Source of the DNA: Negativicutes bacterium
Lineage (GTDB): Bacteria > Bacillota > Negativicutes > UBA1444
DNA length: 64,000 nucleotides
NCBI GenBank assembly: GCA_963665275.2
Contig: CAXXIN010000007.1
Span: 608,001-672,000, forward strand
Direction: 5' to 3'
The position numbers were made by a program, and so were the translations under genes. Positions 41,234 through 64,000 of this stretch are shown piece after piece (the first letter of the stretch is position 1; each line of letters begins with the position of its first letter). The notes below the pieces were generated by a model. That model was not told where the DNA came from. It searched no databases and worked only from the letters and a program-made list of their open reading frames with translations.

Positions 41234-41920
41234 ATGAAATTATTGCTGGTTGACGATGAGATAAAACTCCTGGAAGCACTTTCACATACATTGAAAAAAT
41301 CCGGTTATGTAACAGATACCGCTGCTGACGGAGATACCGGCCTGGAACTGGCAATGAGCGGAATATACGACATTATCATCCTTGATCGTATGTTGCCTGG
41401 GCGGACCGGCATGGATATACTGAGGGAAATTCGACAACATTCCATTAACACGCCGGTACTGTTCCTGACCGCACGGGATTCGTCCGAAGATCGTGTAACG
41501 GGGCTGGATGCGGGCGCCGATGATTATCTGGTGAAGCCGTTTTCCAAAGAAGAACTGTTGGCCCGTCTGCGGGCTCTGACCAGACGGCAAACCAAAGACC
41601 TTACTGAAAATACCATAACCGCCAACAATTTGACGCTCAATCCGATGCATTGCGAAGTAACTCACAACGGGGAGACGATCAGGCTCACGGTTAAAGAGTC
41701 ATTACTGCTCGAATTGCTGATGCGAAATGCCGGCCAAGTTATCACAAAAGAGCGAATCCTGTATAAAGTCTGGAGTTTTTCTTCGGACATAGAGATTGCC
41801 AACGTCGATTTATATATCCACTATCTGAGGAAAAAATTACCGGGTCATTGCATCCGAACCATTCGCGGCGTCGGATACTGTCTGCAGGAGGACGATAATG
41901 TTTCGCAAACTGTTACTTAA
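41234..41920 (+). CDS. OmpR-family response regulator (RR1)
   Basis: LLVDDE, IILDRMLP, FLTA, GADDYLVKPF, VDLYIHYLRKK, RGVGY. Confidence 0.95.
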   Translation: MKLLLVDDEIKLLEALSHTLKKSGYVTDTAADGDTGLELAMSGIYDIIILDRMLPGRTGMDILREIRQHSINTPVLFLTARDSSEDRVTGLDAGADDYLVKPFSKEELLARLRALTRRQTKDLTENTITANNLTLNPMHCEVTHNGETIRLTVKESLLLELLMRNAGQVITKERILYKVWSFSSDIEIANVDLYIHYLRKKLPGHCIRTIRGVGYCLQEDDNVSQTVT

Positions 41921-43265
41921 ACTGACAGTGCTAAATGCCAGTGTCATAGGGATCCTGTTTTGCGCCCTGATTACCGGAGCCTACCTGTTTGCCCAGTATG
42001 ACTTAAACCGACACGTAGAATTCTTTCTTTCAAAAGTTGCAGCCGACATCAACGCCGGTCGACGTCCGCCAATGTTTCCCGGGCCTCCTGGTAGCGGCCC
42101 GACCAAGGACAGCTCTTTGGATTCAAGTTCAGGTTTCCCGCCTGATTCACCTGATCCATCCGGTCCTCCGCCACCGGGACTGCCGTTCGGCCCCCCGGAA
42201 GAACCCCGTGAAGGAGAAATGCCTCGGCCAACACTATTTTATGCCAAGCTGGATTCAACTGGCGCCATTGTCTCCACCTCGGCATCGTTGCCGCTTGCCA
42301 AGGACCAACTTGAAGAATTGGCGCAAGTGGTTGTCCAGAGACCTAAACCCAGTGGTCAGGTAACTTTTCAAAATATCGTATATTTTTATCATGTCACTGC
42401 ACGAACGGACTCTCCCGGACAACTGCTGTTGTTCCAAAACTTCGAGAGGGAGCGGGATGTCTTCCGCACAATAATGACCGCCCTGGTAGTCATCGGCGTG
42501 GTTTGTTTTATCGCCTCCTTGTTCGGCAGCCTATTTCTTGCGCGCCGGGCCATGAAACCGATTCAAAAATCCTGGACGCAGCAACGCGATTTTTTGGCGG
42601 ATGCCTCTCACGAACTTCGCACTCCGTTGGCTGTAATTCAGGCCAATCTGGATGTGATTCAAAGCAATTCCGACGAACTCGTCGCAGAGCAAACCCAGTG
42701 GATGAATAACATTGATGAAAGCGTCAAAGCGATGGCTTCTCTGGTTGAATCTCTGCTTTTTCTTGCGCGGATTGACTCACAGCAACACCCTCTCGACAAG
42801 AAACTGTTTTCACTGGACCAGGCAATCGCCACTGCGGTAGGGCCCTATAAACTCCTGGCCGCAACAAAAAAAGTCAGCCTTACGACTGACTTGGAGCAAA
42901 GCTTGGATTTTTATGGCGACGAAGGACGAATCAAGCAGGTTGTCGGCATTTTGCTCGACAATGCCATACGTCACACAACCGAAGGTGGCAGTGTCAATGT
43001 TGTGCTAAAACAAATCAACAAAAGTGTGCAACTCTCAGTATCCGATACGGGCGAAGGGATTCCATTGGATCAACTGAACAAAATATTCGAACGTTTTTAT
43101 CAAGTCGATCCCGCACGTAACAAAGGGGGCACAGGACTCGGACTGTCCATTGCAAAATGCATCGTGGAAAACCATGATGGGGGCATTCAGGCAAGTAGCA
43201 GCCCCGGCTCCGGCGCCAGTTTTTTTGTCCGCTTGCCCCTCGCAGTTCAACATCCGCTCAAATGA
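41898..43265 (+). CDS. Sensor histidine kinase with proline-rich extracytoplasmic segment (HK1)
   Basis: Two TM helices; DASHELRTPL, LLDNA, DTGEGI, GTGLGL. Confidence 0.95.
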   Translation: MFRKLLLKLTVLNASVIGILFCALITGAYLFAQYDLNRHVEFFLSKVAADINAGRRPPMFPGPPGSGPTKDSSLDSSSGFPPDSPDPSGPPPPGLPFGPPEEPREGEMPRPTLFYAKLDSTGAIVSTSASLPLAKDQLEELAQVVVQRPKPSGQVTFQNIVYFYHVTARTDSPGQLLLFQNFERERDVFRTIMTALVVIGVVCFIASLFGSLFLARRAMKPIQKSWTQQRDFLADASHELRTPLAVIQANLDVIQSNSDELVAEQTQWMNNIDESVKAMASLVESLLFLARIDSQQHPLDKKLFSLDQAIATAVGPYKLLAATKKVSLTTDLEQSLDFYGDEGRIKQVVGILLDNAIRHTTEGGSVNVVLKQINKSVQLSVSDTGEGIPLDQLNKIFERFYQVDPARNKGGTGLGLSIAKCIVENHDGGIQASSSPGSGASFFVRLPLAVQHPLK

Positions 43266-48685: not shown

Positions 48686-48694
48686 CGCCCTTCC

Positions 48695-49387
48695 CTATAT
48701 GGCAAGTTTATCTGCATTGCGCTGGTCGCTGAGAATTTTTCCATCCCGAACATGGACGACCCGCTGTGCGTATGCCGCAATATCCGCTTCATGTGTAACC
48801 ATGATGATCGTTCGCCCTTGCGCATGCAAGTTGCAAAAAACATCCATGATCTCGATGCTGGACTTCGTATCCAGATTGCCAGTCGGTTCATCGGCGATCA
48901 ATATCGCCGGATCTGTGACCAGCGCTCTCGCAATGGCTACTCGCTGCCGTTGACCGCCAGAGAGTTCATTAGGCCGATGATCTTTCCGCTCAACAATTCC
49001 TACCATAGCCAACGTTGAAAGCGCCCGATTCATTCGCTCGTCATTATCTACGCCAGAGTATACCAATGGCAAGGCAATATTTTTCACGGCTGAAATCCGC
49101 GGCAACAAATTAAAGTTTTGAAATACAAACCCTATTTTTCGGTTGCGAGTCAACGCCAGTTGATCATCATTTAGCAGTGCAACTTCATCACCGTCCAACC
49201 GATAGGAACCGGAAGTCGGTCGGTCCAGGCAACCAATAATGTTCATCAACGTTGATTTACCGGAACCTGACGGACCGGTGATGGCTACAAACTCGCCCCG
49301 ATTGATGGACAAGTTCACTCCATCCAGCGCATGGACCGCCGTATCTCCCATCTGGTAAATTTTCTTTATTGCTTTGAGTGTAATCAT
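48695..49387 (-). CDS. ABC ATP-binding protein (MacB/LolD/YknY-like)
   Basis: GPSGSGKST, LSGGQRQR, ADEPTGNLD. Confidence 0.95.
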   Translation of the reverse strand: MITLKAIKKIYQMGDTAVHALDGVNLSINRGEFVAITGPSGSGKSTLMNIIGCLDRPTSGSYRLDGDEVALLNDDQLALTRNRKIGFVFQNFNLLPRISAVKNIALPLVYSGVDNDERMNRALSTLAMVGIVERKDHRPNELSGGQRQRVAIARALVTDPAILIADEPTGNLDTKSSIEIMDVFCNLHAQGRTIIMVTHEADIAAYAQRVVHVRDGKILSDQRNADKLAI

Positions 49388-49408
49388 TATTTTGAGTCTC
49401 CACTTCTT

Positions 49409-50684: not shown

Positions 50685-51353
50685 ATGCAAAATAGAACAA
50701 TATTGATTACCGACGATGAGCTGCGTATTCGCAAACTAGTCGCAGATTTTCTTCTTCATGAAGGGTACACGGTATTAGAAGCAGAAAATGGGCGAATTGC
50801 ACTGGAGATTTTAGAAAAAGAAAAAGTCGACCTCGTGATACTCGATGTTATGATGCCTGAACAGGATGGCCTCAGTGTATGTCGCGAAATACGCAAAAAG
50901 AGTTCCATCCCGGTAATCATGCTCACAGCCAAAAGCGAAGAAATCGATCAGCTCTTTGCTTTCGAGTTGGGAGCTGACGAGTATGTCACCAAACCCTTCA
51001 GCCCCAAAATACTAACGGCGAGAGTCAATGCCTTGCTGCGACGTCTGGAAACCGAAACGCCGCTTAACACCAATGGACTGGTGATTGATACTGAATCCAG
51101 ACAGGTATCCATTGACGCGCAGCCACTGGAACTAAGTCCCAAAGAATATGACTTGCTCGCCTATTTATTCGATAACAAAGGAAAAGCGCTCAGCCGTCAA
51201 CAAATTTTGAATCAGGTTTGGAACTATGATTATTTTGGCGATCTTCGAACAGTTGACACCCACATCAATCGGTTGCGAACCAAGCTGGGCGAAAAAAGCT
51301 CCTTGGTTCAGACGATTCGTGGATATGGTTATCGTTTCGAGGTAGAAAAATGA
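50685..51353 (+). CDS. OmpR-family response regulator (RR2)
   Basis: TDDE, ILDVMMP, MLTA, GADEYVTKPF, RTVDTHI..LR, RGYGY. Confidence 0.95.
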   Translation: MQNRTILITDDELRIRKLVADFLLHEGYTVLEAENGRIALEILEKEKVDLVILDVMMPEQDGLSVCREIRKKSSIPVIMLTAKSEEIDQLFAFELGADEYVTKPFSPKILTARVNALLRRLETETPLNTNGLVIDTESRQVSIDAQPLELSPKEYDLLAYLFDNKGKALSRQQILNQVWNYDYFGDLRTVDTHINRLRTKLGEKSSLVQTIRGYGYRFEVEK

Positions 51354-52837
51354 AGTTCTCGATTCGAACCCGACTTTTTCTGACCCTAAGCGCACTACTC
51401 CTGTTTTTTGTGCTGATGTCGTTGAGCCTGACCCGGCTCGGTCTGGAAAAATACTATATGTGGCAGAAGGAGGACCTCCTGATTGCGACCAGCACTGCCA
51501 TAGACGATCTATACCGCGGCAACCCTGCCGACATCGCAATCGAACTTAAGCGAGCCGCCAATGCGTTGGGGGCCGGCATCATCATTTCCGACCGCAACGG
51601 GCAGCTGAAATATACTTCGTTCGGCCCCTTCATTCATCAAAGTTCCCCGGGGAATGGCCCTGCTTCTTTTCAGTTTCCTCCCCCGCCGCCCCATATCACC
51701 AAAAGCAGAAAGACGATTGACGACCGGACTGTATTGGAAATGCAGAGCGATCCCGATATCAAAATCGACTTTATGGTCATTGACCGACGACTGAACAACG
51801 GAGACACTTTGCACATGCGCCAGACCGTTGCGCCGATTTCCGAGAGCGCGGCTGTCGCTTCCCATTTCATGGTTTTCACCGGCTTGCTGTCTATCCTTGC
51901 CGGATGTATTTGGGCGTTCTTTTTTGCAAAAAGGTTTACCCTGCCGATCCAAAATCTCAACCGCCTCGCTCAACGCATGGCCTTGCTGGATTTTTCGCAA
52001 AAAGCTTCCATTGAGCGTAATGATGAGATCGGTGCTCTTGGTCAGAGTATCAATCATCTCTCCGACCAGCTGGATACGGCCATATCCGAACTCAACCAAA
52101 AAAACCGCCAATTACTGGCGGATGTGGAAAAAGAACGTCAGCTGGACAAAATGCGAAAGGACTTTATCTCCAGCGTTTCGCATGAACTAAAAACACCGCT
52201 TTCCCTTATTCTCGGTTATGCAGAAGGACTGAAGGAAAATGTGGCGCAAGATCAACAAAGCAAAGATTACTATTGTTCCATCATTATGGATGAAGCAGGA
52301 AAAATGGACCGCTTGGTGCATGATCTATTGAACTTGTCCCAAATCGAATCGGGGGGATTTCAACTGAATCGTGAGACCTTCAATTTGGAAGTTTTGCTTG
52401 GCGAATTGGCCCAAAAATATCAGCCCATATTGACGGACAAAGGGGTTGTCTTGGACCTACAATGCTCGACTGATTTGTTCGTTTCTGGCGACCGATTGCG
52501 CATTGAGCAGATTTTGTCCAATTATTTGAACAATGCCATCGAACATGCTACCGGTGAAAAAAAGATTAGTTTGTCGGTTGCCGCTGCAGAAGATCCTGAA
52601 CACGTCCGCGTCACTGTATTTAACTCAGGCTTCCCCATTCCGCAAGACAGTCTGGAAAAAATCTGGACCAGTTTTTATAAAGTTGACAAATCCCGAACGC
52701 GCGCCCGCGGTGGTCAAGGGTTGGGACTATCGATTGTCCGCGCGATTCAGGAGCTGCATGACAATCGCTACGGTGTGGACAACCTGGAATCAGGAGTTCG
52801 ATTTTGGTTTGACATTGATAAGGCAAAAACTATATAA
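51350..52837 (+). CDS. Sensor histidine kinase with HAMP domain (HK2)
   Basis: Two TMs, RNDEIG HAMP, VSHELKTPL, NNA, FYKVDKSR, GLGL; PPPPP in the sensor loop. Confidence 0.95.
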   Translation: MKFSIRTRLFLTLSALLLFFVLMSLSLTRLGLEKYYMWQKEDLLIATSTAIDDLYRGNPADIAIELKRAANALGAGIIISDRNGQLKYTSFGPFIHQSSPGNGPASFQFPPPPPHITKSRKTIDDRTVLEMQSDPDIKIDFMVIDRRLNNGDTLHMRQTVAPISESAAVASHFMVFTGLLSILAGCIWAFFFAKRFTLPIQNLNRLAQRMALLDFSQKASIERNDEIGALGQSINHLSDQLDTAISELNQKNRQLLADVEKERQLDKMRKDFISSVSHELKTPLSLILGYAEGLKENVAQDQQSKDYYCSIIMDEAGKMDRLVHDLLNLSQIESGGFQLNRETFNLEVLLGELAQKYQPILTDKGVVLDLQCSTDLFVSGDRLRIEQILSNYLNNAIEHATGEKKISLSVAAAEDPEHVRVTVFNSGFPIPQDSLEKIWTSFYKVDKSRTRARGGQGLGLSIVRAIQELHDNRYGVDNLESGVRFWFDIDKAKTI

Positions 52838-52925: not shown

Positions 52926-53450
52926 ATGAACATCAATTGGAACAAAAAACTCGCAAGCGGCTTGGTACTCAGCAGCCTTCTACTATCGCTGGCTGTCGCC
53001 ATGGCGGCAGAGCCGCCAAACGCCCCTCCCGGACCCAACCCGGACGCCGTCCAGACCGGGAAGCCACGCCCAGAGGATCATGCCCAACGCCTACGCGCCA
53101 CACTGAAAAAACTGGTCGAAAAAAAGATTATAGAAGCCGACCAGGCGCATCGTGTAATATTGTTCTTTCACCAAAAAGATACCGAACGCAAAGCCGAATG
53201 GGATAAAATCCAAGCGTTAAGCGCAGACGAACGGGAAACTTATATGCAGCAACAATGCATACAACGGTGCCAGAAACGACCAGATTTGGTCAAGGACCTC
53301 ATGGAGGGAACCGGGTTGACTCAGGATCAGGCAAAAGCAATAGCCGATGAAATGCGTCCCCCACATGGTCCTGTTCCTGGCGGCCCTGGCGGCCCCGGCG
53401 GACCTGGCGGACCCGGACCCGAAAAACCTGACAACCCCACCGCGCCCTGA
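52926..53450 (+). CDS. Exported helical protein with Pro/Gly-rich termini
   Basis: Signal peptide ending AMA; GGP x4 tail encoded by a 9-bp tandem repeat at ~53379-53420. Confidence 0.8.
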   Translation: MNINWNKKLASGLVLSSLLLSLAVAMAAEPPNAPPGPNPDAVQTGKPRPEDHAQRLRATLKKLVEKKIIEADQAHRVILFFHQKDTERKAEWDKIQALSADERETYMQQQCIQRCQKRPDLVKDLMEGTGLTQDQAKAIADEMRPPHGPVPGGPGGPGGPGGPGPEKPDNPTAP

Positions 53451-53511: not shown

Positions 53512-53940
53512 TCATACAGTCCTGCTGAAACCACGAGATACCCCTTGGTACCAACGGCCGATATAGGCATTTCGAATATTCCGTGTAACCCGGTTGCCTC
53601 CCAAATGAACTGCAATTTCGTTTTTCTTTTCTTTCGCCGTTTGAACAAGCTGCATTTGAAGCTCTTTGATTTGATTTTGAAGTTCTTGAACCGCCTTGAA
53701 CCTTGCCTGAACAACAGCGCATCCTTGCCATTCCTGTTCGTCCATCTCCTTTTGCGCCATTATTGTTAAATCCTTCAACAGTTGTCCTCGTATTTGCAAT
53801 AGCCGCTTCAGTCCGCGCAATGATTTATGTTCGCCTTGAAGGAAACGAATCTGCCGTTCCGTATTATCCGCAATGGCTTCCAAAAGAACTATTTTTCTAT
53901 TCAACAGGTTCATATACTCGACTTGTGTCATCATAATCAC
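53512..53940 (-). CDS. Flagellar export chaperone-like protein (FlgN/FliT-like)
   Basis: Coiled-coil, basic; overlaps the fliD stop (ATGA); C-terminal AY.......G. Confidence 0.6.
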   Translation of the reverse strand: MIMMTQVEYMNLLNRKIVLLEAIADNTERQIRFLQGEHKSLRGLKRLLQIRGQLLKDLTIMAQKEMDEQEWQGCAVVQARFKAVQELQNQIKELQMQLVQTAKEKKNEIAVHLGGNRVTRNIRNAYIGRWYQGVSRGFSRTV

Positions 53941-55871
53941 TCATCCGAACTCATTAAAGAGTCAATATAGGAACTTTGTGAATTCATCTCTTCGATCGCT
54001 TCTTCCATTGCAGAGAACTTTGCTTCCCATCGTTCCCGCAATGCATCCAAGCGATCTTCTTCTTTTTCAATTCGTTCTTCATAATCAGTGATTTTAGTAG
54101 TTAATGAATTATCGGTATCACTGCCGTCGCTATCCATTCCTGCCAACTCCAATAACCGTCCCTTATTTCCCGCTGAATCAGTAGATGTGGAAACATAATC
54201 GGATAAAATATCATAGAATCGTAGGGCGATCCCTTCTTCTTCGTAACGCGTTTCTCGTTCAGCACTGGTCATAGTCCTCACTGCCGAGTTGGTGGAATAT
54301 GAGGTCGACTTTTGCGCAAACAGCGCCTGTACTGCGGAAGCGTCTTCTTCAATTGCCGCCGTCAGTGCATCCTCGTCAATGTATAATTTGCCATTTTCAT
54401 CATACGTGCCTGAAGTAATACCAATTGCTGATAGCGACAACGAAGAATCCGATACCGAATCCATTAAGGCAAGTCGAAAATTGCGGAGCATATCACTCAG
54501 CGTATCATCTCCCTCAAGTAATCCTGTTTTTGCTTTCGCATTCCATTTTTCGATCTCGGTGTCGCTCATTTCCGCTTCCTCATCGTCAGTCAACGGAAGA
54601 TAATCGCTGTCATAATTTTCATCTAGTGTGTCGTTGATTGATTCAATCAATGTATTATACGCAACAACAAAATTGTCAATCAAATCATAAACGGCATCCG
54701 TATCTTGCTCAACATCCACCGTGACTTCTTCGGTTGTCACATCGGCAAGTTTATAAGTTACGCCATCCAGTTCAATCGAATTGGAGCTGCGAGTAACTTT
54801 CGTCCCATCGTAGACCATGATCGCGTCAGTTCCCTCTGCGGCCGTCCCACCTAACAAACTGGAGATAAACGAACTGCTGTCGCTATCCGCTACCGTCAGC
54901 ATCTCGCCGGCTCCCGTGTCATCAGATGTCAAAACCAGCATATCCGTCAGTTCATCATATTTGAGCGTTGCGCCACAATCCGAATCATTAACCGCATCAA
55001 TAACATCACCCAATGTTTCATCTTCCGCGAAAGTAAAAGAGGTGCCATTGATGGTAAACGTTACTTCATTATCGCCACTCGTTGAATTCGCAACGAAAGT
55101 CATTGCCGTATCTAATTGCGCAGAGATTTCCGCCAGTGTCGAATCCTCGGTAACTCTATTCGAAGTAACATCCGTTGAAGCAAATCCTAAATTTGTCAGC
55201 GCTCCATCCGATGTGCTATCCGCAATCGAAATCGACGACACCCCGCTGTCTGTAGCGGCAGTAAAAGTCAAAACACTTGCGCCATCAACCGTAGTAGTTC
55301 CGACCGTCACTTTGCCGTTACCGACTGCAGTGTCAACTGCATCCTGCAAAGAATCTGCATCGGTTACGGAAGAATCAATCGTTACCGTATAATCAGTTCC
55401 ATCCACCGTAATAACAAAGCTTTCTCCCACAGCGCTGGTATAATCCGCTGCGCTGCTGGCCGTGATGTCTTCGGATAACGTTGAGCTGCTGCTGATTGTC
55501 TCCGCCGTCGCCAACTGAGTCACTTCAATCGTGTGGGAACCAGCCTCCGCATCCACACCGGCAGTAGCCGTCACAGCCGAAGTATCGGAACTGGTTGTAT
55601 CAAATTGCAAATAGTTTGCTTGTTTGATCAGGCTGGATGAGGATGTGGATGAAAAATAGGTATCGACGAACTCCGACAAGTCGTCAATGATATCCCGATA
55701 CGCTTCCTGCTTCCATTCTGTCAGCTGCAATTGCTGATTTAACGAATCCAGTTTTGAACTTTCGGCATCGACCAGTTCATCAACAAGTGAAGCGGTGTCG
55801 ATTCCCGAAGCAAGTCCCGATATGGCAGTACTGCCGCTGCTGGTAGTGTAGGTGGTAATGCTGCTTGACAT
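53937..55871 (-). CDS. fliD: Flagellar filament cap protein (acidic, Ser/Thr-rich variant)
   Basis: ISGLASGIDT..LV..L, V.QLA, SN.I..DGVT, F...YN, PLTD.....M...EIEKW..KAK.GLL, KF.AME. Confidence 0.92.
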   Translation of the reverse strand: MSSSITTYTTSSGSTAISGLASGIDTASLVDELVDAESSKLDSLNQQLQLTEWKQEAYRDIIDDLSEFVDTYFSSTSSSSLIKQANYLQFDTTSSDTSAVTATAGVDAEAGSHTIEVTQLATAETISSSSTLSEDITASSAADYTSAVGESFVITVDGTDYTVTIDSSVTDADSLQDAVDTAVGNGKVTVGTTTVDGASVLTFTAATDSGVSSISIADSTSDGALTNLGFASTDVTSNRVTEDSTLAEISAQLDTAMTFVANSTSGDNEVTFTINGTSFTFAEDETLGDVIDAVNDSDCGATLKYDELTDMLVLTSDDTGAGEMLTVADSDSSSFISSLLGGTAAEGTDAIMVYDGTKVTRSSNSIELDGVTYKLADVTTEEVTVDVEQDTDAVYDLIDNFVVAYNTLIESINDTLDENYDSDYLPLTDDEEAEMSDTEIEKWNAKAKTGLLEGDDTLSDMLRNFRLALMDSVSDSSLSLSAIGITSGTYDENGKLYIDEDALTAAIEEDASAVQALFAQKSTSYSTNSAVRTMTSAERETRYEEEGIALRFYDILSDYVSTSTDSAGNKGRLLELAGMDSDGSDTDNSLTTKITDYEERIEKEEDRLDALRERWEAKFSAMEEAIEEMNSQSSYIDSLMSSDE

Positions 55872-55892
55872 TGTCGGTTCCCTCCTTTAATG

Positions 55893-57008
55893 TCAGGATA
55901 AGTAATCGACCAGAGATTTGGTGATGACTTTCGCACCGACCGATAATGATGCGTCATAAATCGTTTGGGCTGTGGCATATTCCGTCGTAGCCACGGAAAG
56001 ATCCGAATCGATATTTGAGCTAAGCAATCCAGTATAGGTTGTGTAGTCACTGGTTAAGCGTGACGAACAAGTCTCCACATAATTCATGCGCGCTCCCAAA
56101 TCCGACGTTTCCGTGGAAATCGACGCCAAATTGGCATCAATCTCATCCAACAATCCATCCATAGTGAATGTTGTCGTAGTGGTTCCTGTTGCCAAGCCGG
56201 TAGTCGAGTCAACCACGACCGACTGATAACTGGTTTCACCACTCAGTCCGAGTAGCAGTTTGTCAATCGTATCAAATAAATTACCGTTTCCCGTCCCTGT
56301 CACACTCTGGCCTTCCACATTGACAGCCGTCTCACTGCTGTACCCGGTATTGTACTTGATTTCCTGCGCGGTTGTACTGGTGTAGATATTACTGGTCGTC
56401 GTTGACCCGCTCGTTGTCGAAGCATAGGTATTGTAGGCATCCACTAACCCTGTTGAGTCAACCGAACTTGATACCACACTATATAAACTGAGATAGCTTC
56501 CTTTAAATGTCGTTTGTTCCAGCTCTGTTGCATCTCCAGTAGTAGAATCCGTTACAGTAGTCGTCGCTGAATCATATGGTGCCTCATCCGTGGAGTATCC
56601 GCCGAAAATATAGCGTCCTGCATACTGTGTATTCATCAATTCAACGATACTGTCTTTTATTTCGGATACTTCCGCCGAGATGGCCGCAAGTTCAGTATCA
56701 TCCAAAATATCGCTGGAAGCTTGTGATGTTAGATCACGAATTTGCTGCATTGCATCTGTCAGAGAATCCAGTGTACTCGACGTCACTTTCATCCATGAAG
56801 TAGCATCAGTGGCGTTCGACTGATACTGCTCAATTTTCGCTATGACACTGCGATATTGCAACGTCTTGGTCGCCGCAACCGGATCATCCGAAGCTTCCTG
56901 AAACTTCACGCCGGTCGACGTTTCTTCTTGCGCATCACTCAAACGCCCCATATTATCATTAATATTTCGGATTACACTTTGGGTCATCATGGTGTTTGTG
57001 ATCCGCAT
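55893..57008 (-). CDS. flgL: Flagellar hook-filament junction protein FlgL
   Basis: MRITN.M, SDDP, MNT.YAGRYIFGG, LGARMN, SLVDYL. Confidence 0.92.
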   Translation of the reverse strand: MRITNTMMTQSVIRNINDNMGRLSDAQEETSTGVKFQEASDDPVAATKTLQYRSVIAKIEQYQSNATDATSWMKVTSSTLDSLTDAMQQIRDLTSQASSDILDDTELAAISAEVSEIKDSIVELMNTQYAGRYIFGGYSTDEAPYDSATTTVTDSTTGDATELEQTTFKGSYLSLYSVVSSSVDSTGLVDAYNTYASTTSGSTTTSNIYTSTTAQEIKYNTGYSSETAVNVEGQSVTGTGNGNLFDTIDKLLLGLSGETSYQSVVVDSTTGLATGTTTTTFTMDGLLDEIDANLASISTETSDLGARMNYVETCSSRLTSDYTTYTGLLSSNIDSDLSVATTEYATAQTIYDASLSVGAKVITKSLVDYLS

Positions 57009-57037
57009 CATTGTCTCCACCCTCTTTCGTTCATCTT

Positions 57038-58588
57038 TTAACCGTCGACCATATCCAGCATGGTCTGATACACTTCTTGCCACATACTAACGGCTTTGGC
57101 CGAAGCGGCAAAAGATTCTTGGTACAGAACTAAATTGGTAGTTTCTTCAGTGGTTGACACGCTGGATACAGATGCACGCCTGGTATCTATCGCACTCAAA
57201 ATTGTGTCATGTCTATCTGTTTGCGTTGTTGCATAGGAATTGGCTGTGCCTAGCGTTGCCGTCATGGATTCCAAATAATCGCTCAAGCTGCAATTGCCGA
57301 AAACCTCTTGCGAGTCGCAAAGATCAATCAACTCCAGCATATTTTCCGCATTCTCCGTCTCTGTCGTATCAGATGACGAAGAGGCTGCAATATTGGATAC
57401 ATCACTTAGCACCTCATATGACAGTGAAATATTCGCCGCCGTTATCTTGGAGTAAGCTGCGGCAGTTTCTTCATCGGTGGGAGTTGTCGTTCGATCCAGG
57501 AAACTTGTGGAACTCGTTTCATCGTAAGTGAAAAAGCAAATTCCTGTATCGCCATCGGAATCATACCCGTCGGCATGACCGGAATAACTGCTGGTTCCTT
57601 CATTAAAGGCTTCAGCCAAAGTTTGGGCGTACTCATCCAGTTGATCCATATAATAAACGATGCCCTTATAGTCTCCATTTTCTCCCGTACCATCGCGCAG
57701 TTCCAGCAATGCCCCCAGTTGCCCGCTTTCCGGAGTTACTGAATCGCCGGTATCACTCCACACCACCTCATACATACCGTTGTCTGTACTGGTGGAATCG
57801 ACCACTTCATTGCATTCCAGCGTCCGATAGTTACTGCCGTTGACCAACGTGCCGCCATCAAGTGTAATAACCAGCGTTGTAACTTTTTCTCCCGAAACGG
57901 ACGTACCTGCCGAAGTTTCCGTTACTTCAACATTCACTAAACTTGATAACTTATCGATCAAGAGATCTCTCTGATCTTCCAGATCACTGGCGTCACTACC
58001 GCCGACCTGCGCTTTCTGAATCTGTTGATTCAAAGCGGCAATCCGTTCACTATAGGAATTGATCTCCGATACGGAAGTTTTGACGTCTTCGTTCAAAGAA
58101 TCCCGTTCACTTGACAGAGATGTCGCCATACTGTTCAAATAATCGCAAACCGCTTGCCCGGCCTGTTGCAAACAAGTCCGGGCATCCGTGCTGTTGGGGT
58201 CGGTAGAAACGTCTTCCAATGCGGCGGAGAAGTCACTCATAACCGTGTCGAACCCATCTTCGCTGCTGATGTCTTCCAGTACGTCTTCCAACTCACCCAG
58301 CGTCGTCGACTTGGTTTCCCATGCTATCGCCACACTGTTTTCGTCCCGGTACTCGGCATCAATCAACGCATCTCGTTCTCGAGAAATCGAAGTAATTTCA
58401 GTTCCAGAACCGGTGCTGGCGCTTGAAATATATATAGCTGCCGGGCCTATCGCCGACTGAGTAACCGTTTTGCGGGAATAACCGTCCGTATTGGCATTAC
58501 TAATATTATTGGTCGCAACCGACATCGCCGCCTGACTGGCATATAATCCAGTCGTGGCCGAATATAATCCGGTAAAAGTCGAAGACAT
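57038..58588 (-). CDS. flgK: Flagellar hook-associated protein FlgK (copy 2)
   Basis: STF.GL..A.TGL.ASQ, NNISNANT.GYSR, LEDQRDLLIDKLS, SVSSVS..EE..NL..YQ. Confidence 0.92.
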   Translation of the reverse strand: MSSTFTGLYSATTGLYASQAAMSVATNNISNANTDGYSRKTVTQSAIGPAAIYISSASTGSGTEITSISRERDALIDAEYRDENSVAIAWETKSTTLGELEDVLEDISSEDGFDTVMSDFSAALEDVSTDPNSTDARTCLQQAGQAVCDYLNSMATSLSSERDSLNEDVKTSVSEINSYSERIAALNQQIQKAQVGGSDASDLEDQRDLLIDKLSSLVNVEVTETSAGTSVSGEKVTTLVITLDGGTLVNGSNYRTLECNEVVDSTSTDNGMYEVVWSDTGDSVTPESGQLGALLELRDGTGENGDYKGIVYYMDQLDEYAQTLAEAFNEGTSSYSGHADGYDSDGDTGICFFTYDETSSTSFLDRTTTPTDEETAAAYSKITAANISLSYEVLSDVSNIAASSSSDTTETENAENMLELIDLCDSQEVFGNCSLSDYLESMTATLGTANSYATTQTDRHDTILSAIDTRRASVSSVSTTEETTNLVLYQESFAASAKAVSMWQEVYQTMLDMVDG

Positions 58589-58611
58589 AATTCACCTCCA
58601 GAAGCTACGCA

Positions 58612-60111
58612 TCACCTTATCAGTGAAATAATATCCGATACCAGGCCGTCCACAAGACTTAGATATTTCGAGGATGCACTATAGGCGGTTTGGTACTCAA
58701 TCATTTTAGACAATTCATCCTCCATAGAAACACTCGATACTGACAATCGATCGGTGTTGGTTTGCGTGGTCAGACTTTCCTGCGTCGTCACCAGTCCTGC
58801 CGTCGTTTCGTTTTCCGTCGCCAGCCAGGAAACAACGGCTGTATAATAATCGTCGACACTCTTGGAAAGCCCATCGACCTCCAACAGATCCGAATCTTGC
58901 AGCCCGGCAATCGCAGTCGCGATTCCCCCGTCACTGGCCTCGCCGGTCGCAGATACCGCCAACAAGGACGAGTCTGAAGACAAGGCTGAATTGACCTGGA
59001 TATTGCTGATGTTTAATCCTGTTCCGTCGCCTGTTCCGCTGTTGATGAAGAACACCGTCGTATTGGTGTTGGTTGTGTCGGTTTCACCAAGTTCAACGCC
59101 GGAACTAAAAAGATCATTCACTTTGTAGGCAATCGTCGTGATCAAAGCATTCAATCCTTGTCGCAGTTCTCCGATCGAACTGGCGGATGAGGGGTCGAAA
59201 TCATACGGAAGATCTGTACTGGAAATAGTCAGCACGGCGCTCTGATCAGCGTCTTCCATCTGGGCCAAAATACTGCCGGAAGAAAAGCCCACAGTTTTGC
59301 CCGTTTCCGCCCAAGTCACCGTCAACGGATCGTTCGCTGATCCGTCTCCAGACGCAACCAATGTATGTGTCTTATCATCACTGACCAGGTACACGCCGCC
59401 GATCAAAACTTGATATGTTCCATCAGTCTGTACGTTGACTGTAACGTCTGCCAAATCAGACATTTGATCAACCAAGGTGTCACGCTGATCCTCCAGATCG
59501 TTGGCTGTATATCCTTTGGTTTCTGCAAGTTTGATTTGCGAATTCAAATCAGCTACCTGTGTCGCCAAGTCGTTTAACGTATCCACCGATTCGTAAACAT
59601 TCGCCGCACATTCTTCCTGCAGTTGCTGCAACTGAGAATCCATTTCCGACACTAAATCCACCAAGCTGGTTGCCGATTCCAGAACCGTATCCTGTGCACT
59701 CGTACTGGAAAGATCTTTCGCGAGCTCTTCCCAACTGGAAAAAAAATCTTCCATGGCCAATTGTACGCCTGTTTCCTCTGCTGAGTCATCCGATGTAGAG
59801 GTTGAAAAATCGCCCAGCAAAGCCTCCGCGCTGCTCAAAGTATCGCTCTTGGCTTCATAGTAATACAGGTCCGCATTTTCACTGCGATAGGTCCGATCCA
59901 GCATTGTGCTTCGCAGGCGCGTAACCGAATCCAAAGCAACGCCTGTCCCCAGAACCGCCGACGAAGTGACAATTTCGGAAGTATTCGTCCGTTGCCTGGA
60001 ATATCCCGTTGTATTGACATTCGCCAAATTATGGCTGATCGTCTCCAAAGCTGTTTGGTTGACGGACATTCCTGTATAACCCAGACTATATGAGCCGATT
60101 GTAGAAGACAT
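58612..60111 (-). CDS. flgK: Flagellar hook-associated protein FlgK (copy 1)
   Basis: HNLANVNT.GYSRQ, NDLEDQRD.LVD, SVSSVSMEDE...MI.YQ.AY. Confidence 0.92.
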   Translation of the reverse strand: MSSTIGSYSLGYTGMSVNQTALETISHNLANVNTTGYSRQRTNTSEIVTSSAVLGTGVALDSVTRLRSTMLDRTYRSENADLYYYEAKSDTLSSAEALLGDFSTSTSDDSAEETGVQLAMEDFFSSWEELAKDLSSTSAQDTVLESATSLVDLVSEMDSQLQQLQEECAANVYESVDTLNDLATQVADLNSQIKLAETKGYTANDLEDQRDTLVDQMSDLADVTVNVQTDGTYQVLIGGVYLVSDDKTHTLVASGDGSANDPLTVTWAETGKTVGFSSGSILAQMEDADQSAVLTISSTDLPYDFDPSSASSIGELRQGLNALITTIAYKVNDLFSSGVELGETDTTNTNTTVFFINSGTGDGTGLNISNIQVNSALSSDSSLLAVSATGEASDGGIATAIAGLQDSDLLEVDGLSKSVDDYYTAVVSWLATENETTAGLVTTQESLTTQTNTDRLSVSSVSMEDELSKMIEYQTAYSASSKYLSLVDGLVSDIISLIR

Positions 60112-61517
60112 CAGCTCACCATATTGATGACAGTTTGCATCATGTCATCAGACACAGTAATCAGTTTGCTTGCCGCCTGATACGCCCGCTCCGCTACCAT
60201 CATCTCCGCGAATTGAGATGATAAGTCCACATTCGATGCTTCCAGCGCCCCGGCGGTCAGGGAACCCGTACCTCCACTTCCTGCGACCACTGCGCCATCG
60301 TACGAACCGGAATTCGCACTTGCGGCATACAGACTGGTCCCGACTTTATCGAGACCACCGGCATTGTTGAAACTAGCCAACCCGATCTGAGCCAGCACCT
60401 GTGTTTGATTATTACTGTAGACCCCGGTAATCGTACCATCGGAGCCGATAGAGTAACTCGACAGAGTACCGCTTGCGTACCCGTCGCTGGAATCTACGGC
60501 AATAGAACCCTCCGTATAGAGACTAACGGCAGAAACATCCATGGAAACTGTGAAATCATCGATGTTAACCAGCTTGTTGCCACTGGCGTCCGTAGCGGCT
60601 GCCATGCTGATGTCATAGGTCTTAGAAAAAGTATAAGTTTCAGGAGTTGATCCCGTTACTGTCGGATCCGAACTGTAATAAGTCCCTGTCAGCAATTTCC
60701 CCGTTGAGTCAAATGCCAGATAGCCGCTGCCGGAAGCGTTGACATTATCGGCTGAATCAGACGCCTCCCAATATACGGTCGTAACAGTCGTTGCCGTGCC
60801 ATCCTCGTCATAAACTGCAGCTGAATAGCATTTTGTAAAATCCACATCCACATCATATTCATTGCCGAGCGCATCATACACCGATATCGTGGCCGAAGTG
60901 TCCGCGTCCAAATCAGTTGTAGCGCCGATATCAAAAACACTGTCCCCCTGCGCCTCTGCCGTCGAATCCAGTGTGCCATCCATCGTCGCCGTGGTTGTTT
61001 TTTCAGGCGCGATCACCTGCTTGCTGGATCCGTCGGCATTATAAAAAAGATTAATGCCTGAAACCGCGGCCTCCGTATCGATCACCTGATCCGCATCCGG
61101 TTCCCAACCGCAGACTTTATATCCGTTCACATTCAGGTTCCCCTCCGCATCCACGCCGAAATTACCGGCCCGCGTGAAATAGTAACTTCCTGTGGTGTCG
61201 CCTTCCACAATGAAGTACCCGCCCCCGTTGATCGCCACATCAGTGTCGACTCCGGTACTGGTAATGCTGCCACTCGTCACATTTGTCGATATTGCGGCCA
61301 CGGATACGCCGAGGCCGATCTGCTTGGCATTGGTGCCGCCGGTGTTGGAAGTTGTGCTTGCTCCCGAAGACGAGCTAAGGGTCTGACTAAGCAAATCAGA
61401 AAAAGTGGCGGTCTGACTTTTATAGGCCACGGTGCTCACATTGGCTAAGTTGTTCCCGATGACATCCAGTTTGGTCTGTTGCGCGTTCAGCGCCGTTAGT
61501 GCCGCATAAACCGACAT
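60111..61517 (-). CDS. flgE: Flagellar hook protein
   Basis: DVIGNNLANV.T.AYK, D.AI.G.GYF, TRAGNF, YDALG, LEASNVDL..QF..M...RAYQA. Confidence 0.93.
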   Translation of the reverse strand: MSVYAALTALNAQQTKLDVIGNNLANVSTVAYKSQTATFSDLLSQTLSSSSGASTTSNTGGTNAKQIGLGVSVAAISTNVTSGSITSTGVDTDVAINGGGYFIVEGDTTGSYYFTRAGNFGVDAEGNLNVNGYKVCGWEPDADQVIDTEAAVSGINLFYNADGSSKQVIAPEKTTTATMDGTLDSTAEAQGDSVFDIGATTDLDADTSATISVYDALGNEYDVDVDFTKCYSAAVYDEDGTATTVTTVYWEASDSADNVNASGSGYLAFDSTGKLLTGTYYSSDPTVTGSTPETYTFSKTYDISMAAATDASGNKLVNIDDFTVSMDVSAVSLYTEGSIAVDSSDGYASGTLSSYSIGSDGTITGVYSNNQTQVLAQIGLASFNNAGGLDKVGTSLYAASANSGSYDGAVVAGSGGTGSLTAGALEASNVDLSSQFAEMMVAERAYQAASKLITVSDDMMQTVINMVS

Positions 61518-61628
61518 CTTTCTTCATCCTCCCGACAACTCTATTTCCTTATTGATTTCCGAAACAGAAGCCGGCCTCCCTGTAAGGGTCCAGCCGAGTT
61601 CTCGGTATCCCTTGTTTTGACGAACACT

Positions 61629-62045
61629 TTAAGTTGCCGTCCCGTTGACGGAGGTAATGTCGCTATAACTTACCGACGTACTGCCGATCGTAAGAGAAGC
61701 TTTCCCGCTGCTGACAGTCACCGCCGACACCGTTCCGCTGCCCGTGGTCGTCGTTCCTGAGTCATCTGTAGTGCTGTAGGATACATCCTGTCCTATCAGA
61801 CTAAAGGCCGAAGTTGCTTCTGCTGTGCTGCTCATGGAGGATAGCTGTTCGAGTGTGCTCATCTGCGCCAATTGAGAAACCAGTTCCGTGTTTTCTACCG
61901 GATTCGTCGGGTCCTGATTTTGCAATTGTGCGCACAGAAGCGTAATGAAGGATTCAAAACTGGCCAGACTGCTAGTGGCTGTAGTGCTGCTAAGAGTGCT
62001 GGACGAGGCCGTAACCGTACCTGTACTTGAAATGCTTGTACTCAC
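61629..62045 (-). CDS. flgD: Flagellar hook capping protein
   Basis: F.TLL.AQLQNQDPTNP....E.VSQLAQ.S.LEQ; GTG 62045 after AAGGAG. Confidence 0.92.
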   Translation of the reverse strand: MSTSISSTGTVTASSSTLSSTTATSSLASFESFITLLCAQLQNQDPTNPVENTELVSQLAQMSTLEQLSSMSSTAEATSAFSLIGQDVSYSTTDDSGTTTTGSGTVSAVTVSSGKASLTIGSTSVSYSDITSVNGTAT

Positions 62046-62401
62046 CTTACTCACTCCTTATCTTTTTCGCTCTTGTTTTTTGGAGGATCAGTCATGCTTT
62101 CCCGATGACTATAACTTTCAGATATTTTTCTTCATTTGGTATTTCCACATCTCATATTAGATTTTTGTTTGATTATTTGCTGGAATAGATTTATATTCTC
62201 TTTGAAAATAAAAATATGCTCCGCAATAAGACCCAAAGCCCTATTCTACAGCTTGTTCTCGAACATTATAAATTTTGAATGATTTTTTCATAGCTAATAA
62301 AAATTAAATGATTTTCTAATATATTCCCCCTATAATTCAAATGGAAAGCTAAGATGGCAAATTTTACTACATGGACGTAGCCACACTTGGGGGAGACTCT
62401 C

Positions 62402-63058
62402 GTGAAACTTCTTTTGGCGGAAGACGAGCCGAAACTTGCCAGTGCCTTGTCTTATCTGATGAAGAAAAACGGATACATCGCCGATGTTGCTTCCAATGGA
62501 GAAACGGCCCTGGAAATGGCTGCTACCGGAGTCCATGACATGTTAGTTTTAGACCGGGCATTGCCGCTCCGTGATGGGCTATCGGTTCTCAAAGAATACC
62601 GGTCTTTGGGTTTTGATAACCCAGTCCTCTTTCTGACCGCCCTCGACTCCCTTCAGGATCGCGTCGAAGGCTTGGATGCCGGCGCTGACGATTATATGGT
62701 CAAACCCTTTTCGTCGAACGAGTTACTCGCACGAATGCGCGCTCTGACCCGCCGAATTGCTCCTGCAGATAAAATCAATTTTGTTATGGCGGCTGGCATC
62801 ATCCTTGATCCTTCACGCAGTGAAGCAAAAATCAGTGATTCCTGGATAAAACTGACGGTGAAAGAATCTATGATTTTGGAATTGTTGATGCGCAACTTTG
62901 GGCAAGTCATCCCGACTGATCGTATCCTGGAAAAAGTTTGGGGAGAACAGTCCGCCGTATATCGGCCTTATGTACACTTGTACATTCATTATCTGCGAAA
63001 AAAGCTCCCAGCCATTTGTTTAAAAACCATTCACGATGTTGGCTATTCTCTGCAATAA
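62402..63058 (+). CDS. Orphan OmpR-family response regulator (RR3), paralog of RR1
   Basis: GTG 62402; LLAEDE, VLDR, GADDYMVKPF, LTVKES..LELLMRN.GQVI and V.LYIHYLRKKLP shared with RR1. Confidence 0.93.
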   Translation: MKLLLAEDEPKLASALSYLMKKNGYIADVASNGETALEMAATGVHDMLVLDRALPLRDGLSVLKEYRSLGFDNPVLFLTALDSLQDRVEGLDAGADDYMVKPFSSNELLARMRALTRRIAPADKINFVMAAGIILDPSRSEAKISDSWIKLTVKESMILELLMRNFGQVIPTDRILEKVWGEQSAVYRPYVHLYIHYLRKKLPAICLKTIHDVGYSLQ

Positions 63059-63081
63059 TCATTCACCGAACCGCGTGTGCC

Positions 63082-63111
63082 GCGCAGAATTTTTTCTGCG
63101 CATTTTTTTTT
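63082..63111 (+). terminator. Intrinsic terminator of RR3
   Basis: GCGCAGAA/TTCTGCGC stem plus T9. Confidence 0.8.
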
Positions 63112-63286
63112 ACCACCAATATTTTTTGATAAAAATTTTTATGGGTATTCGATTTCAAATATTCTTCTAATTTTTTACATCGAACAAATAATTAGCCGGG
63201 GAAGGTTGAGGTGATTCCAGTGAACTAAGCAGCAGAAAACACCAGGGTAAGCCACCGACTCATGAGCTGGGGTAAGCTCAAAAAGG

Positions 63287-63322
63287 GGAGTAAGGATACT
63301 CCACCTAAAAATTCAAGGAGGA
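63287..63322 (+). promoter_or_regulatory. CsrA-type binding sites in the flagellin leader
   Basis: Hairpin GGAGTA-AGGA-TACTCC, and ATTCAAGGAGG over the SD, as in Bacillota hag leaders. Confidence 0.7.
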
Positions 63323-63329
63323 AAAAATC

Positions 63330-64000
63330 ATGATTATCAATCACAACATGGCGTCTTTGAACACATTGAACTCCTTAAACGCCAACAGTACGACCATGCA
63401 GAAATCCTTAGCCAAACTGTCTTCCGGTCTGCGGATCAACAGTGCAGCCGATGATGCTGCCGGACTCGCGATTTCAGAAAAAATGCGCGGTCAGATCAGC
63501 GGCCTCGACACCGCCAGTTCCAACGCCCAGAATGGTATATCGCTCCTGCAGACAGCGGAAGGTGCGCTCGATGAAACCACCAGCATTCTACAACGTATGC
63601 GTGAGTTGGCGGTAGAATCTGCTAGCGATACCATTACCGACGATGATCGAGATGATATCCAGTCTGAGTTCTCGGAACTAACCGAAGAAATTGACCGAAT
63701 TGCCTCTACCACGCAATTCAACACCAAAAACCTGCTCGACGGCTCGATGAGTAGTGATAATACCACCGTTACTGCGAACGTATCTGAAAACACTTCTTTC
63801 GCATCTGCAACCACATCCGGCACTCTCGCGACCGCTTTGACGGACTCCAGCGGCAATTCGTTGGGAATTACCGAAGGCGATACCATTTCACTCAGTTATG
63901 TCAAAGATGGTGCTCTGCAAACGACCTCATTCACAGTCACTTCCGCTACCACCGTTGCAGATCTCGATACAGGAGATTTTGCAATAACAACCGCTACGAC
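63330..64000 (+). CDS. fliC: Flagellin (5' part; runs off the window end)
   Basis: Hand translation MIINHNMASLN...KLSSGLRINSAADDAAGLAISEKMRGQI...QTAEGAL.E...ILQRMRELAV...FNTKNLLDGS. Confidence 0.97.
   Translation, partial: MIINHNMASLNTLNSLNANSTTMQKSLAKLSSGLRINSAADDAAGLAISEKMRGQISGLDTASSNAQNGISLLQTAEGALDETTSILQRMRELAVESASDTITDDDRDDIQSEFSELTEEIDRIASTTQFNTKNLLDGSMSSDNTTVTANVSENTSFASATTSGTLATALTDSSGNSLGITEGDTISLSYVKDGALQTTSFTVTSATTVADLDTGDFAITTAT

Follow-up and report, generated by a model that had tools for sequence, protein, structure and literature searches.

Why should a bacterium carry a second set of genes for the parts of its flagellum that lie beyond the rod, when a single apparatus for exporting them seems to be encoded in its genome? 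The question is raised by a stretch of 64,000 nucleotides (nt) from a Negativicutes bacterium, hereafter the window, which corresponds to C7:608001-672000, on contig C7 of an assembly of 3.97 Mb in 20 contigs that is 92.6% complete (genome label G000). One end of the window holds genes for a hook cap, a hook, three junction proteins, a filament cap and a flagellin, together with a small basic protein and a response regulator, and this cluster is referred to here as the kit. The reading that we favour, and regard as fairly probable, is that the kit would provide a separately regulated alternative flagellar exterior, built on a basal body shared with the ordinary flagellum. The genes are the following, with lengths in amino acids (aa).

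61629..62054, minus strand: kit flgD, hook cap/scaffold, 141 aa, 44% Ser+Thr; PF03963 at 74 bits against a cut-off of 27, and PF13861 above its cut-off
60111..61517, minus strand: kit flgE, hook, 468 aa; TIGR03506 at 257 bits against a cut-off of 70, with PF00460 and PF06429 at the ends
58612..60111, minus strand: kit flgK1, hook-filament junction paralog 1, 499 aa; TIGR02492 at 268 bits against a cut-off of 170.75
57038..58588, minus strand: kit flgK2, junction paralog 2, 516 aa; TIGR02492 at 294.5 bits; three conserved cysteines
55893..57011, minus strand: kit flgL, junction protein HAP3; TIGR02550 at 208.9 bits against a cut-off of 127.2
53937..55871, minus strand: kit fliD, filament cap, 644 aa; PF07195 at 159 bits and PF02465 at 88 bits, each against a cut-off of 25
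53512..53940, minus strand: p142, a basic three-helix protein of 142 aa, probably a FlgN/FliT-like export chaperone
62387..63058, plus strand: OmpR/PhoB-family response regulator, divergent from the flgD operon; PF00072 at 81.6 bits and PF00486 at 63.5 bits
63330..64000, plus strand: kit flagellin, 407 aa in full, with 553 nt beyond the window end; PF00669 at 165 bits and PF00700 at 94 bits

A flagellar gene set restricted to the exterior

The kit proteins were assigned to families by Pfam and NCBIfam profile matches, judged against the curated cut-offs. FlgD, FlgE, both FlgK proteins, FlgL, FliD and the flagellin all lie above these cut-offs, with the conserved D0-type termini included, and the profile matches agree with the gene content that had been listed in an earlier, sequence-only reading of this DNA, including the small basic protein and the OmpR regulator. 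The species-level 'equivalog' models of NCBIfam for FlgE and FliD stay below cut-off, and the kit FlgE matches solved FlgE chains with an E value of 2e-48. On the minus strand the genes are transcribed in the order flgD, flgE, flgK1, flgK2, flgL, fliD and p142, with short gaps or overlaps between them, the start of p142 and the stop of fliD overlapping by 4 nt. The open reading frame (ORF) called for flgL (55893-57083) begins at a GTG at 57083, and the likelier start is the ATG at 57011, which stands behind the ribosome-binding site AGAGGGTGGAG. A terminator-like hairpin (63082-63101) separates the regulator from the flagellin gene. All the kit ORFs are intact in this genome and in every kit read.

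It had also been claimed that no rod, motor, export, fliK or flgM genes accompany the cluster, and this was upheld by a tblastn search of the window for paralogs of these genes with all minus-strand ORFs of the canonical flagellar regions, in which the kit genes and receiver domains were the only matches. The remaining parts of an ordinary flagellum are found elsewhere in the assembly. FlhA is present in a single copy on contig C9 (one FHIPEP match in the genome), and the ordinary flgD and flgE belong to a basal-body operon on the same contig, about 8-10 kb from flhA. Contig C19 carries a late locus of the classical Firmicute kind, with flgM, flgN, flgK, flgL, a DUF6470 gene, fliW, csrA and hag, followed by genes for a Maf-type transferase, NeuB, an epimerase and a cytidylyltransferase and then by a candidate flaG ORF, fliD and fliS. 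The idea that the kit might be the genome's only set of these genes did not hold, as the canonical set is present on these two contigs, and the second set is exterior-only, as had been proposed, with one FlhA and complete primary flgDE, flgKL, fliD and hag genes beside it. With regard to a complete second system of the dual or lateral type, no second FlhA was found in this genome, at its 92.6% completeness, or in 10 other kit genomes, some of them closed, each of the 11 genomes tested having one FlhA; nor were other flagellar paralogs found in the window.

Two features of the assembly bear on this comparison. In the reference, the primary fliD on C19 appears to be broken by three frameshifts, and this was rejected as a true state of the gene. 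Independent contigs from two public sequencing runs omit 7 letters, are otherwise identical and give an intact ORF of 498 aa, so the frameshifts are assembly errors. The reference carries seven single-base insertions within 1.5 kb (C19:155291-156756), which break primary fliD and a neighbouring ORF, and local errors of this kind could mislead gene calls elsewhere in the genome. The second feature is contig C20 (17.5 kb), on which part of the kit (p142-fliD-flgL-flgK2) recurs at 60% identity and which is also syntenic with the window at 37-44 kb. It was not counted as a third kit, as the contig most likely comes from another species of the same genus that is represented in the assembly; its DNA is 78-83% identical to genomes G011, G010, G002, G007, G004 and G003, and 63-76% identical to the syntenic genes of the assembly's own C7. 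The fliD and p142 homologs on C20 have one frameshift each.

The kit proteins are distant from their primary counterparts. FlgK, FlgL, FliD and FlgE share only 27-44% identity with them over the aligned regions, kit FlgD is 35% identical to the FlgD of C9 and FlgK2 30% identical to the primary FlgK, and FlgK1 and FlgK2 are themselves only 28-32% identical. The two flagellins are closer, with 62% identity in the N-terminal region. These figures bear on an alternative in which the kit is additive, its subunits co-assembling with the primary ones in mixed or segmented hooks, junctions and filaments that would tune the mechanics or the surface of one type of flagellum. Such co-assembly is favoured by the likeness of the flagellins in their core-forming N-terminus and by the position of the primary flgD and flgE in the basal-body operon, from which they would be expressed whenever basal bodies are built. 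It is also favoured by the single fliS of this genome, on C19; with one FliS, both flagellins must use the same protein. However, a complete and co-inherited set running from hook cap to filament cap exceeds the needs of tuning, and the low identity of the hook, junction and cap proteins to the primary ones argues for separate, co-evolved interfaces. On balance we consider an additive kit unlikely, and further points on both of its sides arise below from the flagellin leaders, from one genus and from a described system.

A shift in composition confined to the exported subunits

The kit proteins differ from the canonical set of the same genome in their amino-acid composition. In percent of residues, proline stands at 0.55 in the kit versus 2.27 in the canonical proteins, Lys at 2.25 versus 4.50, Arg at 2.12 versus 2.96, Asn at 4.49 versus 7.26 and Gln at 3.45 versus 5.03. 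Acidic residues rise to 14.9 versus 9.2 (Asp 8.95 versus 5.64, Glu 5.93 versus 3.53) and hydroxyl residues to 27.6 versus 22.0 (Ser 14.1 versus 11.1, Thr 13.5 versus 10.9), the primary FliD entering these counts as two fragments of the uncorrected reference. The shift is present in all five genomes in which both sets were compared. There, the mean ratios of kit to primary are 0.58x for Lys, 0.71x for Arg, 0.36x for His, 0.73x for Asn, 0.75x for Gln, 0.80x for Trp and 0.40x for Pro, and, among the residues that increase, 1.34x for Ser, 1.22x for Thr, 1.26x for Asp, 1.46x for Glu, 1.48x for Tyr and 5.7x for Cys. Gly, Met and Phe are lower in the kit and small residues are raised, and the net charge per 100 residues is about -8.2 in the kit versus -2.2 in the primary set. 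Calculated isoelectric points (pI) of 4.05 are the floor of the calculator and are to be read as 4.05 or less.

The shift exceeds chance, and it is seen at aligned columns and not just in the variable domains. Among 13,497 aligned columns from the five genomes, whose relatedness causes p-values to be overstated, basic residues occur in the canonical protein only at 671 and in the kit protein only at 308; the corresponding figures are 1170 and 680 for amides, 191 and 58 for proline, 644 and 981 for acidic residues, and 1255 and 2001 for hydroxyl residues. The counts of the sequence-only reading, made by hand, were right: kit FliD has 1 proline and 30 Lys+Arg in 644 aa (4.7%, with 19.9% Asp+Glu), and kit FlgL has 2 prolines. 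Of the five motif changes quoted with them, two hold against the primary set of this genome. The claim that conserved prolines had been replaced stands for FlgL, where RPSDDP has become EASDDP, and for FlgE, where NNPGGL has become NNAGGL; it fails for FlgK and FliD, as the primary proteins read NTAGY and ADSDAV and have no proline there. Similarly, of the proposed change from AVQ.AN to AVESAS in flagellin, the replacement of Q by E is real and the rest is not, since the primary flagellin already reads AVQSAS.

The cytoplasmic proteins of the cluster are without the acidic shift (p142 has a pI of 10.06 and the regulator one of 6.1), and the earlier view that the chaperone is basic and that the bias is limited to exported subunits agrees with these values. 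Furthermore, 15 FliD proteins from Clostridia, taken as an outgroup, resemble the primary type in composition; the composition of the kit is thus the derived state. The kit was found to differ in composition both from the primary set and from the Clostridia FliDs. The shift recurs across families whatever the local G+C of the upstream regions (0.29-0.55), and it is weakest in Propionispora and in genus g13, whose kit-type hook and junction are the sole ones and whose kits are the least acidic.

Four purposes of this chemistry can be ranked, with a surface adapted to charge or to pH and ions first, a load of O-glycosylation second, nitrogen sparing third and evasion of phages or predators last. 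The shift fits a polymer exposed to high pH or ionic conditions, because the loss of Lys exceeds that of Arg, little His is present, acids and hydroxyls take the place of amides and small residues rise, and it would also suit a polymer that avoids or binds charged surfaces. With regard to glycosylation, potential sites for O-glycans are more numerous in the kit, which adjoins a dedicated glycosyltransferase unlike the nonulosonic-acid system of the primary locus. A glycosyltransferase with GT2 and TPR domains lies 3' of the kit flagellin and is followed by genes for other glycosyl- and methyltransferases and for an EF-hand protein. The latter, of 238 aa and with several calcium-binding motifs, is encoded at C7:678669-679385, at the far end of these genes. 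Nitrogen sparing is a minor candidate only. All six nitrogen-bearing side chains fall, and the kit saves about 7% of the nitrogen per residue; as a sole cause it was rejected, since Arg falls less than Lys and since Pro, Gly, Met and Phe fall as well.

Cysteines distinguish the two sets further. The axial proteins of the primary set have 0-1 cysteines, and those of the kit include Cys136 and Cys230 of FlgE and Cys148, Cys259 and Cys424 of FlgK2. Cys136 of FlgE, within the motif KVCGW, is found in 15 of 15 kits, at a position where canonical FlgEs have M, A, Q or L and solved FlgEs have Q. A hook crosslink of the lysinoalanine type was considered and set aside: the cysteines of kit FlgE align with Gln and Val of chain 6ndx_B ('Flagellar hook protein FlgE'), which we take to be the FlgE of the spirochete Treponema, and not with Cys, and no parallel is claimed.

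This chemistry could also be read as that of a filament whose main use is not swimming, such as an adhesive, a cation- or mineral-binding structure or a polymer secreted via the flagellar apparatus. The charge of about -8 per 100 residues, the conserved cysteines in the hook and in FlgK2, which are unusual among axial proteins, the EF-hand protein and glycosyltransferases nearby, and a control that appears to be two-component rather than sigma-28 all lend it something. The kit nevertheless retains hook, junction and cap proteins whose D0-type termini are intact, which is the architecture required for the transmission of torque, and in genus g13, discussed in the next section, no hook but the kit type was found in genomes where FlhA and a cap gene are retained. 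A filament of this kind seems to us distinctly improbable, more so than the additive kit.

Distribution and conservation in Negativicutes

Kits with the gene order flgD-flgE-flgK1-flgK2-flgL-fliD-(p142 or fliS)-fliC-regulator are also present in Anaerospora, Sporomusa, Pelosinus and Propionispora, as well as in many other genomes, and some genomes have two or three kits. Orthologs of FlgK1, with 35-48% identity, occupy the same position in every kit. For FlgK2, a sample of 301 genomes of the class yielded orthologs (42-81% identity) in 49, which represent 21 of 93 genera; these cluster in a small number of families, and the three largest families of the sample gave no match. FlgD was found in 144 of the 301 genomes. 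Among the 49 kit genomes, 44 have at least two FlgD matches and five have one, the five being two incomplete genomes and three of genus g13. A subtype of the kit without fliD and fliC, in which a long FlgD (268-270 aa), FlgE, FlgK1, FlgK2 and FlgL are accompanied by a different OmpR-type regulator (G161:C1:76001-96000; G073:C1:50001-70000), co-occurs with full kits in the same genomes.

Genus g13 bears on whether kit parts and an ordinary basal body are compatible. No FlgD other than the kit type was found in any of its three genomes (G049, G070 and G023, each at least 99% complete), and a search for FlgK, made in G049, likewise gave kit-type proteins only. Moreover, flgD and flgE are absent from the 15 kb adjoining flhA in G049, and the same genome retains one FlhA and, elsewhere, a fliD-fliS pair of the canonical type. 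Having kit-type FlgD and FlgK only, this genus indicates that kit parts can be built on an ordinary basal body, and a genus that runs on the kit-type hook and junction alone also counts against a merely additive role.

In a quick tree, in which composition bias may affect the topology, the kit FliDs form one clade with SH-aLRT support of 95, and Clostridia FliDs lie between them and the canonical Negativicutes FliDs, which suggests that the split is old. In the comparison of G000 with its congener G005, the nonsynonymous divergence (dN) of the kit genes is 0.10-0.30 and that of p142 0.58, and synonymous divergence (dS) is saturated. Where dN/dS is defined it does not exceed 0.06 and lies below the values for neighbouring non-flagellar genes. 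The kit genes are, on these sequence comparisons, under purifying selection. Kit FlgE is 468 aa long here versus 603 aa in two congeners and about 78% identical to theirs in the shared parts, and an outer hook domain has thus been gained or lost within the genus.

These data bear on the least favourable view of the kit, namely that it is an inert duplication or what decay has left of a second system since lost, with a composition that reflects drift or foreign DNA. The restriction to exterior genes and the patchy presence within the host genus, where the FliD type occurs in 4 of 12 genomes, could be taken in this sense. Against it stand ORFs that are intact everywhere they were read, a dN far below dS, a composition shift that is the same across families despite their range of G+C, and a G+C in the window (0.44-0.51) near that of the genome (0.50). 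Decay or inertness is strongly disfavoured and, of all the alternatives, has by far the smallest chance of being right.

Control of the kit genes

The elements on which the regulation of the kit may depend are listed here, with assignments of promoter function that are putative.

62142..62171, minus strand: flgD-operon promoter element, CAAACAA-N4-CTAATAT-N8-GGAAAT, with tandem boxes 11 bp apart and a -10-like hexamer
63153..63190, plus strand: flagellin promoter element, TCAAATA-N4-TCTAATT-N7-TCGAAC, in a block conserved in G000, G005 and G009
63287..63321, plus strand: flagellin 5' leader, with a GGAGTA-AGGA-TACTCC hairpin (63287-63302) that has GGA in its loop, followed by the Shine-Dalgarno sequence AAGGAGG (63315-63321)
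41234..41920 and 41898..43265, plus strand: response regulator and histidine kinase, outside the cluster, a candidate cognate two-component system; the regulator is 55% identical to that of the kit

OmpR/PhoB regulators usually bind direct repeats one helical turn apart. The flgD element of this genome is conserved in G005 and G009, and other genera have an element of the same architecture, CTAAAYA-N4-CTAAATA-N7-8-GCGATA, ahead of their kit flgD and fliC genes. A regulon could not be defined from these boxes, as a loose pattern matched only the flgD promoter in the whole genome. The primary genes are preceded, by consensus matching, by sigma-28-like promoters (TAAG-N15-TCGATA for hag and TAAA-N16-GCCGATA for flaG-fliD), and a search of both intergenic regions of the kit, with one mismatch allowed in each half-site, gave no such promoter (consensus TAAA-N15-(G)CCGATA).

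In the kit regulator, the phospho-acceptor Asp56 and the Thr and Lys residues are present, and the first residue of the acidic pocket is Glu instead of Asp. No named NCBIfam equivalog reaches its cut-off for this protein, the best being RppA with 159 versus 250 bits. An attempt to name the signal of the two-component system from the best matches (RppA/RppB, PhoR and heavy-metal types) was abandoned, as all of them lie below the NCBIfam cut-offs. Regulators of the same OmpR-type lineage lie in or beside most of the kit loci examined, in many genomes and sometimes with a matching kinase. Homologs of the regulator-kinase pair at 41234-43265 directly adjoin kits in G161, G073 and G069, and they are also present on C20.

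Between the kit and a regulator-kinase pair with a MacB-type ABC/HlyD exporter (50685-52837 and 47459-50494), the window encodes a secreted protein of 174 aa with Pro/Gly-rich ends (52926-53450, plus strand), and G001 and G005 have the same arrangement.

At the level of translation, GGA hairpins combined with Shine-Dalgarno sites bind CsrA, as in the hag gene of B. subtilis. The leader of the kit flagellin has this layout, with a perfect hairpin whose AGGA loop lies 12 nt upstream of a GGA-containing Shine-Dalgarno sequence, and csrA and fliW are both present on C19; binding of CsrA is thus predicted. An equivalent GCAC-GGA-AGC hairpin precedes kit fliC in other genera, and the primary hag leader has a hairpin as well. 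A CsrA-type hairpin in both leaders is a further point for the additive alternative, under which the two flagellins would enter the same filament.

p142 as a candidate chaperone

The last gene of the operon encodes a protein that does not belong to the FlgN (PF05130) or FliT family by sequence. No Pfam family is matched by p142 at an E value of 0.001 or less, and at E values up to 10 only a faint match to FlgN appears (E 0.83), for the ortholog in G001; the 32 homologs found are metagenome proteins without a name or a Pfam domain. The predicted structure is a three-helix bundle with a mean local confidence (pLDDT) of 81.6. A Foldseek search against the PDB gave nothing at an E value of 0.001 or less, with FliT and FlgN among the weak matches. 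In a comparison by VIA-align with 48,161 chains, the best match was FlgN (2fup), with other flagellar chaperones listed as well, at a root-mean-square deviation of 2.5 over 98 residues and a Z of 11.5, in the range, under about 13, in which fold matches of helical bundles can be generic.

A complex model of p142 with the C-terminal helix of kit FliD (residues 608-642) scored 0.71 versus 0.00 for the best control, a mark that is attained by 58 of 80 solved complexes and by 2 of 110 mismatched pairs. Contacts agree between runs to at least 69%, and the partner reaches a pLDDT of 76 or more. A FliT-FliD complex has already been solved, and the result may therefore reflect likeness to it. Taken together, these models suggest that p142 is probably an export chaperone resembling FlgN or FliT, predicted to bind the C-terminus of FliD.

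Relation to described systems

Dual flagellar systems are known from Vibrio parahaemolyticus and Aeromonas, where the polar and lateral sets are differently regulated and used under different conditions. The Fla1 and Fla2 flagella of Rhodobacter sphaeroides have been described as another such system (PMC7277832). Like these bacteria, kit genomes encode hook, junction, cap and filament proteins twice, in paralogous sets, but in dual systems the export gate, rotor, rod and stators are all duplicated, and here only the parts beyond the rod are. Every kit protein belongs to a known family, p142 aside, and the module itself is not a dual system, as it has no second basal body.

The nearest described case found is the rpoE6 cluster of Azospirillum brasilense, flgK-flgL-fliD-fliS-fliC2, which has its own extracytoplasmic function (ECF) sigma factor and anti-sigma factor, and whose second flagellin is probably glycosylated (PMC12826043). 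As its abstract describes it, this cluster is likewise a partial, exterior-only set with a dedicated non-canonical regulator, but it lacks hook cap and hook genes, has a single FlgK and uses an ECF sigma factor instead of a two-component system. The abstract presents FliC2 as a minor component of the same polar filament and mentions no shift in composition. The addition of a minor flagellin to a polar filament by such a cluster (PMC12826043) is a precedent for the additive alternative.

Further comparisons are more partial. No published description of the kit module in Negativicutes, Sporomusa or Pelosinus was found in a literature search that left out subscription journals and supplements. 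Axial paralogs that share one export apparatus are known from the multi-flagellin filaments of Caulobacter, Shewanella and Campylobacter and from FlgE2 of Helicobacter and Campylobacter. These are duplications of single genes, whereas the kit unites seven structural genes with those of a chaperone and a regulator in a syntenic module, of which a genome can have up to three. With regard to composition, the sulfur-depleted phycobiliproteins of cyanobacteria are an alternative protein set with a shifted elemental composition, and exteriors that are acidic, poor in Lys and rich in small and hydroxyl residues are typical of adaptation to high pH or high salt in alkaliphiles and halophiles. Acidic proteomes have been the subject of a review (PMC3817357). 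The kit resembles both cases in being a second structural protein set with a systematic amino-acid shift, and departs from both in its losses of Pro, Gly, Met and Phe and its gains of Tyr and Cys, which neither model predicts. To our knowledge, none of the named kit carriers is known as a halophile or alkaliphile.

How the kit may work

The favoured reading of a separately regulated exterior on a shared basal body can be set out as a sequence of steps. A two-component signal would turn on both the operon from flgD to p142 and the flagellin gene from their own type of tandem-box promoter rather than through sigma-28, probably under the adjacent OmpR-type regulator with the paralogous kinase pair 19 kb away. 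Translation of the flagellin would probably be kept under the FliW-CsrA checkpoint shared with the primary set. The kit subunits would be exported through the single flagellar type III apparatus, making use of the shared export gate, of FliK, of FlhB switching and, in this genome, of FliS, and would polymerise on the ordinary basal body. The result on the ordinary rod would be a hook joined to a capped filament through a junction in which FlgK forms two layers. The surface of this product would be strongly polyanionic and rich in hydroxyls, with little Lys, Arg, His, Asn, Gln or Pro. We infer from the gene data both the assembly on a shared basal body and the two-component control, as well as an exchange with the primary exterior rather than a mixing into it.

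Several observations weigh against this scheme. Counts across related genomes are not independent of one another. The primary flgD and flgE belong to the basal-body operon and could not be silenced without losing the basal body, which makes mixed or competing hooks as plausible as a clean swap and, for the hook at least, speaks for competition or mixing; the kit of this genome also has no fliS of its own. The regulator lacks an adjacent kinase here. The boxes that it is predicted to bind are degenerate in this genome, failed a stricter pattern and were recognised only through alignment with G005 and G009. Furthermore, the -10-like hexamers GCGATA and TCGAAC resemble the -10 of sigma-28, and sigma-28 acting with an unusual spacing may account for these promoters. 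For p142, the fold match may be generic, as noted above.

Significance

Accounts of flagellar diversity usually deal with multiple flagellins within a filament or with whole second machines, and the kit would be an intermediate form between the two. It raises the questions of how two hooks, two junctions and two caps would be sorted on one basal body, and of how hook-length control and substrate switching would accommodate them. A uniform shift of composition that affects seven exported proteins and spares the cytoplasmic chaperone and regulator is, moreover, a clean natural experiment on the demands that the surrounding medium makes on a flagellum. The cultured carriers Sporomusa, Pelosinus and Propionispora make the kit testable.

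A broader and more tentative view, which we hold as a real possibility falling short of the probable, is that a 'wardrobe' of exteriors, between one and three of them and each complete from hook to cap, is at the disposal of many free-living Negativicutes, which would exchange them on a single type of basal body in response to an outside signal. Every exterior of this kind would come with a two-component switch of its own and with two FlgKs at the junction; its hook would carry the invariant cysteine, and its surface would be polyanionic and rich in hydroxyls. If this were true, it would amount to a mode of flagellar plasticity that has not been described for any bacterium, in which the identity of the hook is modular on a fixed rod.

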